NCBI RefSeq assembly: GCF_988242995.1
Contig: NZ_OZ547043.1
Strand: one strand, 5' to 3'
DNA length: 64,000 nt
The translations under genes and the position numbers were made by a program. The notes under the pieces were generated by a model. The model did not search any database, was not told where the DNA came from, and saw only the letters and a program-made list of their open reading frames with translations. The number at the start of each line of letters is the position of its first letter. Positions within the stretch are counted from its first letter, which is position 1. Below, in pieces: positions 38,219 to 38,859 of this stretch.

Positions 38219-38578
38219 ATGACCAAACGCCAGGGCAAAAACCGCAGGCGCGTTAACCGTCTTATTGAACTATGGCCTGAATTATTCAGCCTGGAATCAC
38301 CGAAGCCGCTTAAGGTAGGGATATTTGAAGACCTGATACAGGATATTGCCGTCAGGGCGCTGGCTTTTGGGTCAGGGGCATTACGTGCGGCGCTAGCATC
38401 TTATGCTCATTCTCCGCGTTATTACCGTGCCTTAATGGCTGGTGGCGTGCGTTACGATCTGAATTGCCAGCCATGCGGTGAGGTGACACAACAGGAACAG
38501 CAGGACGCGGAAGCACGACTGATGGCACTGAAAGAGAAGCGCAAACGTAAGTCGAACAAGGAACAAGCTGGCGTATGA
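38219..38578 (+). CDS. FinO/ProQ-domain RNA-binding protein
   Basis: 119-aa ORF; PLKVGIFEDL...ALASYAHSPRYYRALMAGGVRYDLNCQPCGEV resembles ProQ N-terminal FinO domain (PLKIGIFQDL...YTSSWRYL...RVDLDGNPCGEL). Confidence 0.7.
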   Translation: MTKRQGKNRRRVNRLIELWPELFSLESPKPLKVGIFEDLIQDIAVRALAFGSGALRAALASYAHSPRYYRALMAGGVRYDLNCQPCGEVTQQEQQDAEARLMALKEKRKRKSNKEQAGV

Positions 38579-38859
38579 GTATGATTCACGACAGTAGAGC
38601 GGAAGATCTGGAGGCTAAAGGCCTGTACCGGAGAGCGGCGACCCGATGGGCTGAGGTCATGCAACAGGTGAACACCGATAAGGAGCGCGAACAGGCAGTA
38701 AAGCGTCGCGCGGAATGTATCCACAAGGCAGCACGTTCGCCCGTCATGCTGGATAATTTCGGGGGCTTGAGAGAGGCAGCAAACCGCACACAGGCGGATA
38801 TGGGGATAGAAATCGCAAAATCTGTCTGGCGGAACTACCAGACAGACAAGGTTTTATAG
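38575..38859 (+). CDS. PerC-family transcriptional activator-like protein
   Basis: 94-aa ORF; AEDLEAKGLYRRAATRWAEVM matches recalled PerC/Pch signature; 4-nt overlap with upstream gene. Confidence 0.6.
   Translation: MSMIHDSRAEDLEAKGLYRRAATRWAEVMQQVNTDKEREQAVKRRAECIHKAARSPVMLDNFGGLREAANRTQADMGIEIAKSVWRNYQTDKVL

Follow-up and report, generated by a model that had tools for sequence, protein, structure and literature searches.

The locus considered here raises the question of what use phages and satellites have for the PerC-family proteins that they encode, and by what molecular mode of action these proteins work. It lies in a window of 64,000 nucleotides (the whole stretch of DNA that was analyzed) from contig NZ_OZ547043.1, in which a reading frame encodes a protein of 94 amino acids beginning MSMIHDSRAEDLEAKGLYRRAATRWAEVM (Table 1). 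An earlier note had recognized the PerC/Pch signature in this protein, and several lines of evidence agree. The family motif AEDLEAKGLYRRAATRWAEVM occupies residues 9-29. The profile search that the note had proposed as a check gave full-length support, with a score of 111.5 bits (E=2.4e-32) against the Pfam PerC model PF06069 over profile positions 1-88 of 90, compared with a gathering score of 22.6 bits. In PHROGs, phrog_994 matches the protein with an E-value of 8.9e-36, and several 'transcriptional activator' families match over the N-terminal 50 residues only. An identical protein in RefSeq, WP_166697537.1 (92 aa), is named 'PerC family transcriptional regulator'. Of the columns in an alignment of 73 family representatives, one was invariant and ten nearly so, and the protein keeps the residue at each of them (L10, E11, G14, R17, R18, A19, R22, W23, C46, A66, and G75). 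The profile score, the core residues (LE..G.YRRA..RW ... C ... A ... G), and the size of about 90 residues place the protein in PF06069. This family seems modest in size, because a representative search with the single protein returned only 133 clusters at E<=0.001.

The dN/dS of the gene relative to its relatives is 0.20-0.35, indicating purifying selection. This reading frame is a genuine PerC-family gene that codes for a protein under selection, and a chance origin is excluded. Two overlapping reading frames on the minus strand (38452-38724 and 38586-38789) were treated as spurious, since the profile match and the purifying selection favor the plus frame. Both the family and the type of element are known, the protein being an uncharacterized allele that RefSeq already names correctly. 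[quoted passage not shown]

Table 1. Positions, in the window, of the features of the island and of the FinO-PerC junction.
Feature	Position	Strand	Evidence and remarks
tRNA-Pro, marks the integration site	31901..31977	+	Rfam tRNA 54.9 bits; RefSeq annotation
Left att-like direct repeat	32083..32121	.	repeat family D2, 39 nt
P4-type tyrosine integrase	32184..33428	+	Pfam Phage_integrase, Arm-DNA-bind_3, Phage_int_M
AlpA-family regulator/excisionase	33692..33883	+	Pfam Phage_AlpA 28 bits, cutoff 21
isrK-like element	34287-34363	+	Rfam RF01394 47 bits, slightly short of the gathering score (50)
C4 antisense RNA	34388..34475	+	Rfam RF01695 76 bits, gathering score 45
Icd-like ORF	34529-34717	+	RefSeq annotation
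DUF4222 protein, RgdR (ECs1581) homologue	34925..35212	+	Pfam DUF4222 85.1 bits; overlaps the replicase start
DUF927 replicase/helicase, pri-rep type	35209..37344	+	Pfam DUF927 158.8 bits
Iteron-like repeats GGGACAAGT / TTGTCCCACC	37365..37496	.	repeat families D1 and D7; follow the replicase gene directly
SSB gene	37581..38006	+	Pfam SSB 61.1 bits; TIGR00621 66.6 bits
ProQ/FinO-family gene	38042..38578	+	178 codons, amber at 38210-38212; Pfam ProQ; RefSeq 178-aa protein in LH13-b
Shine-Dalgarno-like AAGGAA	38558..38563	+	11 nt upstream of ATG 38575; read from the sequence, function presumed
Tandem duplication GTATGA/GTATGA	38573..38584	+	FinO stop / PerC start; sequence and alignment with L005 and L009
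PerC-family ORF	38575..38859	+	94 aa from ATG 38575, 92 aa from ATG 38581 (RefSeq start); Pfam, PHROG, RefSeq
66-aa ORF just 3' of the PerC gene	38925..39125	+	phrog_7206 E 1.7e-6
Second iteron cluster	39658-39721	.	downstream of the PerC gene; repeats of the two clusters GGGACAAGT / GACTTGTCCCACC
PmgG-like head-morphogenesis gene, the island's last	40088..40684	+	phrog_1114 E 9.1e-60
Right att-like direct repeat	40810..40848	.	repeat family D2; yejO then follows

The PerC gene sits in a PICI-type phage satellite of E. coli of about 8.7 kb, beside tRNA-Pro and between yejM and yejO, so the note was right to place it on a mobile element. The island has the features expected of Gram-negative PICIs, namely an integrase, an AlpA regulator, a pri-rep replicase with adjacent iterons, att-like repeats, and a size within the range of about 8-20 kb. 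The att-like repeats, imperfect copies of 39 nt with 79% identity, bracket the island at a distance of 8727 bp and probably represent attL and attR. The left copy lies about 100 nt downstream of tRNA-Pro and not within the tRNA gene. By analogy with PICI architecture (PMC6092414), the iterons at the end of the replicase gene form a putative satellite origin. No lysis or tail genes were found among the island ORFs, and an element of this type would depend on a helper phage for induction, replication, and packaging. The PmgG-like gene, which is of phage P1 type, the Icd-like gene, and the C4 RNA are hints of a P1-like helper. The PerC gene is the last of a string in the order DUF4222, DUF927 replicase, SSB, ProQ/FinO, and PerC.

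Several other features of the island deserve mention. The C4 RNA and the isrK-like element lie inside an annotated 'ash' pseudogene, upstream of the Icd-like ORF. This pair resembles the RNA immunity module of P1/P4 style, and the same pair occurs in the PICI EcCIMP1 (L013). A tie between the FinO protein and these RNAs was rejected as a general rule because EcCIMP1 has C4/isrK without a FinO gene and the elements L005 and L009 have the FinO-PerC pair without C4/isrK. The DUF4222 protein shares 61% identity with ECs_1581 (RgdR) of strain Sakai. As RgdR (ECs1581) of O-island 51 is a published regulator of the LEE and motility (PMC3378721), the island carries homologues of two 'LEE regulators'. 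The DUF4222 protein has HGD in place of the functionally important RGD motif of RgdR. Additionally, the longer form of the 66-aa ORF, with a TTG start, has a weak match to the Pfam Tad2-like/DUF2829 family (E 0.16).

The 6-kb neighborhood of the gene is 99.9% identical to that in E. coli LH13-b (NZ_CP100525.1), where RefSeq annotates a 'ProQ/FINO family protein' (178 aa) and a 'PerC family transcriptional regulator' (92 aa). Over the whole island (31878-40877), the sole difference from LH13-b is a single G to A change at 38211, whereas the chromosome on either side is about 1-2% divergent. This contrast suggests that the lineages came to share the island recently, an indirect sign of recent mobility. 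The change at 38211 converts a TGG codon of LH13-b into an in-frame TAG within the FinO gene. It could be either a very recent mutation, given that nothing else in the island differs while the flanks have diverged, or a sequencing error. As to the FinO-domain gene that the note had placed upstream of the PerC gene, the domain was confirmed (PF04352, ProQ/FinO, 88.1 bits), but the 119-aa frame that is still open (38219..38578, plus strand) is only the 3' part of an amber-interrupted gene of 178 codons. The Salmonella element L009 also has a split FinO gene, with ORFs of 51 aa and 121 aa.

The note had also pointed to a 4-nt overlap between the two genes and suggested that they are co-translated. 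The overlap is evident, with the FinO TGA (38576-38578) and the PerC ATG (38575) sharing an ATGA at 38575-38578, and the same ATGA overlap is present in single copy in the E. coli elements L005-L007 and the Salmonella element L009. Because it is conserved in both genera, translational coupling of FinO and PerC may fairly be inferred. In the window, a 6-bp tandem duplication at the junction (GTATGAGTATGA, read as GGC GTA TGA GTA TGA TTC) gives two ATGA motifs and two in-frame ATGs (38575 and 38581), and in an alignment the E. coli L005 and Salmonella L009 sequences have one ATGA each and are gapped by 6 nt opposite the duplication. The second ATG, which would yield a protein of 92 aa (MIHDS...), is the start in RefSeq and in most homologues, the majority of which begin with MI[HR]D. 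Both starts are plausible because the spacing between AAGGAA and the first ATG (11 nt) equals that between AAGGAG and the ATG in L005.

A promoter consensus scan of positions 37300-40200 found no promoter-like site on the plus strand from the SSB start to the PerC stop. The single plus-strand terminator-like match in this interval sits within the FinO ORF, at chance level. Promoter and terminator counts in the scanned region were both at chance level, and no private PerC promoter of convincing quality was found there. A promoter-like minus-strand site at 38899-38872, just 3' of the PerC gene, belongs to these chance-level counts as well.

The gene order DUF4222-DUF927-SSB-ProQ-PerC recurs in the E. 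coli elements L005-L007, which occupy the same yejO-flanked site, and in the Salmonella elements L008 and L009. Elements L005-L007 are larger relatives with an extra Nu1-type small terminase gene, a SocA_Panacea-domain gene, and a second, divergent PerC-family gene (11051-11353 in their own numbering, 100 aa). An SSB-PerC arrangement without the FinO gene is found in Klebsiella elements and in the cf-PICI Sp7/O-island 51 of O157:H7, where the PerC-family gene is pchE. Of 5426 complete E. coli genomes, 212 contain DNA encoding the FinO-PerC pair, in each case annotated under these two names, and the isolates that carry the island came from poultry, pigs, humans, and the environment and included enterotoxigenic E. 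coli (ETEC). Members of the PerC family were also found on 159 plasmids and in 64 phage records. Allelic variants of PerC are known from E. coli PICIs (PMC6092414), and the AlpA and PerC family regulators have been treated as typical PICI genes (PMC11773190). A literature search found no description of FinO-domain proteins in E. coli PICIs, and the conserved, ATGA-fused FinO-PerC pair of this PICI lineage is the sole feature for which no published description was found.

The nearest characterized relative is PchE (ECs_1588), a 'group 3' Pch protein of the O157:H7 Sakai Sp7 element (O-island 51, the cf-PICI EcCIEDL933), with 59% identity over 87 residues. Both proteins belong to the same Pfam family and have similar lengths (90 vs 92-94 aa). 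Moreover, both are encoded on the same type of element, int-alpA-DUF4222/RgdR-replicase-SSB-PerC, and in the same place downstream of SSB. However, pchE directly follows SSB without a FinO-domain gene and is itself followed by capsid and terminase genes, its product is acidic (net charge -2, pI 5.7) while the protein here is basic (net charge +3, pI 9.3), and its element lies beside phoQ and not at tRNA-Pro. Overexpression of PchE decreases csgD, curli, and stpA and increases flhDC, fliC, and motility (PMC6265319, PMC7369912), although most of the PchE data were obtained by overexpression from plasmids. Transcripts of pchE start 110-115 and 675-680 nt upstream of the gene, the latter between the replicase gene and the gene upstream of SSB (PMC6265319, PMC7369912).

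Other relatives are more distant. EcCIMP1_025, which is 50% identical over residues 1-76, is also encoded on a PICI, EcCIMP1 of E. coli MP1, that has C4/isrK RNAs, ash/icd, DUF4222, and a DUF927 replicase. Its gene differs in lying at the accessory end of a 20-kb element without fusion to a FinO gene. By experiment, this protein silences LEE1 in Citrobacter rodentium, and its authors suggested an ANR-like action as a hypothesis (PMC11773190). PerC of the EPEC EAF plasmid (perABC) and PchA/B/C of the EHEC lambdoid prophages share the Pfam family and the motif LExxG[LF]YRRAxxRW...C with the protein here. They are known as LEE1 de-silencers (PMC4764244). Identity is 40% to EPEC PerC and 38% to PchD. 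A 104-aa Pch-type protein, encoded in a prophage region on a plasmid, is 47% identical and, by its length and prophage context, stands in for PchA/B/C of Sakai in these comparisons. The net charges are +9 for PerC, +13 for the 104-aa Pch-type protein, +5 for EcCIMP1_025, and -2 for PchE, so that PerC and the Pch-type protein are much more basic than the protein here at +3. The Pch-type protein also has a basic C-terminal tail of 15 residues that is missing here. The genomic contexts differ as well, with perA-perB-perC on a plasmid and the Pch-type gene beside a lysis cassette in a prophage region. In its length of 92-94 aa without the tail, its charge, and its location outside a lambdoid prophage, the protein departs from the group 1 Pch proteins (PchA/B/C).

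The Pfam score is of little help in deciding which of these relatives is the best guide to function. All six reference proteins score 82-153 bits, including 143 for PerC, 149 for the 104-aa Pch-type protein, 124 for PchD, 153 for PchE, and 104.5 for EcCIMP1_025. Because LEE1 activators, non-activators, and a repressor all score far above the cutoff, a match cannot tell activators from the others. Sequence distance is also a poor predictor, since the Pch-type protein at 47% identity represents an activating group and EcCIMP1_025 at 50% is a LEE1 repressor. In the mechanism published for the family, Pch activates LEE1 only by relieving silencing by H-NS/StpA/Hha/YdgT. Against an indirect action through nucleoid proteins, PchA associates with DNA in ChIP-chip experiments, and contact between Pch and H-NS was not detected (PMC4764244).

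The protein itself is about 10.6 kDa and predicted to be all-helical, with an additional helix at the C terminus. Its N-terminal 50 residues are predicted to form a three-helix unit resembling those of tetratricopeptide repeat (TPR) and ANR proteins. Proteins of 55-70 aa that consist of this stretch alone also exist, and larger proteins have it as their C-terminal domain. The similarity to the ANR family (Aar, Rnr), whose members have been described with three helices (PMC4983702), is remote and confined to this region. Specifically, the NCBIfam ANR model (NF033650) matches residues 6-52 with 17.3 bits (E 0.003), below the curated cutoff of 32, while 33 of the 40 short relatives match it at E<=0.01. 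Beyond the score, ANR proteins are smaller than 10 kDa, lack the PerC C-terminal extension, and are encoded alongside AraC-family activators, none of which is present in the island. Three-helix models match TPR proteins generically, so they lend weak support to a protein-protein mechanism, and neither the protein alone nor the family profile found anything meaningful among the sequences of solved structures (best E-value 0.62). The net charge, which is intermediate between those of the activators and PchE, would still allow association with DNA.

Based on this evidence, the protein is probably, although by no means certainly, a PchE-like member of the PerC family and a standard component of PICI-type satellites, whose expression would be coupled to that of FinO and which would modulate transcription indirectly. 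Whether it instead resembles PerC and PchA/B/C in de-silencing, within a host that has the LEE, the promoter of LEE1 (ler) or further virulence genes of horizontal origin is the issue raised by the note's label of a PerC-like activator, a type that it linked to chromosomal virulence genes. The full-length family match with all family-invariant residues and the identities to the Pch-type protein and EPEC PerC are compatible with such a role. In addition, Fillol-Salom et al. (PMC6092414) reported that some PICI-encoded PerC homologues activate the LEE, and ler increases about 2-fold upon PchE overexpression (PMC7369912). A label of virulence activator nonetheless finds no support here, for the two nearest relatives are not LEE1 activators and the Pfam match does not discriminate. 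PchE is neither needed for nor an activator of LEE expression (PMC6265319), and the same source, citing Iyoda and Watanabe (2004) and Porter (2005), states that group 2 and group 3 Pch do not activate the LEE. EcCIMP1_025 even represses LEE1 (PMC11773190). The protein also lacks the basic tail and much of the positive charge of the Pch-type protein, no LEE was found within the 64-kb window, and the island occurs in poultry, pig, human, environmental, and ETEC isolates. Activation of LEE1 is therefore very unlikely. The opposite role, that of an ANR-type anti-activator that binds AraC/XylS-family regulators and/or H-NS and represses virulence or stress regulons, is unlikely but has more in its favor. 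The sub-threshold ANR match and its counterparts among the short relatives, the fit of the predicted N-terminal unit to the three helices of ANR proteins, and the identity to the LEE1-silencing EcCIMP1_025 all point in this direction. On the other hand, the score falls under the curated cutoff, the 40-residue C-terminal extension is PerC-specific and absent from the short, ANR-sized relatives, the island has no cognate AraC-family gene, and for EcCIMP1_025 an ANR-like action is itself a hypothesis.

Two further explanations place the function within the satellite. The protein could serve the satellite life cycle by turning on downstream or packaging genes or by hindering transcription of the helper phage, with any effect on the host being secondary. 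The fixed place of the gene at the end of the replication module, directly ahead of the capsid and packaging genes in cf-PICIs and ahead of accessory or morphogenesis genes here, is suggestive of such a role. Moreover, the family is common in temperate phages, where it makes up several PHROG families, and its occurrence in PICIs of commensals suggests a function not tied to virulence. Yet the literature search found no perC-like gene that is required for PICI induction, replication, or transfer, and the known master activator is AlpA (PMC6092414, bioRxiv 10.1101/2022.09.08.507074). The PerC gene is also variably present among EcCIMP1-like elements (PMC11773190), and pchE is expressed without induction from its own upstream starts and lowered upon SOS induction (PMC7369912). 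We consider this role quite unlikely. Similarly doubtful is the proposal that, in one PICI lineage, the FinO and PerC genes constitute a conserved regulatory module of two genes in which an RNA chaperone and a TPR/ANR-like modulator of the nucleoid or of regulators act together for the satellite. This reading arises because the ATGA overlap joins the pair, which is present in the 212 complete E. coli genomes and in Salmonella. Such a module might combine counter-silencing with control of satellite or helper genes at the RNA level.

The PchE-like account, which we favor, implies the following. The PerC protein would be made together with the products of the replication module, as part of the SSB-FinO string, and partly by translational coupling. 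If ribosomes must arrive from FinO, the amber codon in the FinO gene may weaken this coupling and lower PerC expression. As a small helical adaptor, and not a classical sequence-specific activator, the protein would alter transcription indirectly, either by interfering with the nucleoprotein complexes of H-NS/StpA/Hha or through binding to other regulators. As for its targets, which like the mechanism we infer largely from the relatives, they would likely include core-genome master regulators, as for PchE (csgD, flhDC, and stpA), and AT-rich, horizontally acquired DNA, including that of the satellite or its helper. LEE1 is not likely to be activated.

Overall, labeling satellite genes of this kind as 'virulence activators' spreads an unsupported function. 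Targets of the PchE type are core genes of any E. coli, and if FinO and PerC do act as one module, the effects for which PerC homologues have been called virulence regulators would be a by-product. The conserved FinO-PerC fusion point and the natural amber allele of FinO provide a simple genetic handle on both the coupling and the function of these genes, and thereby on the use that phages and satellites make of the PerC family.
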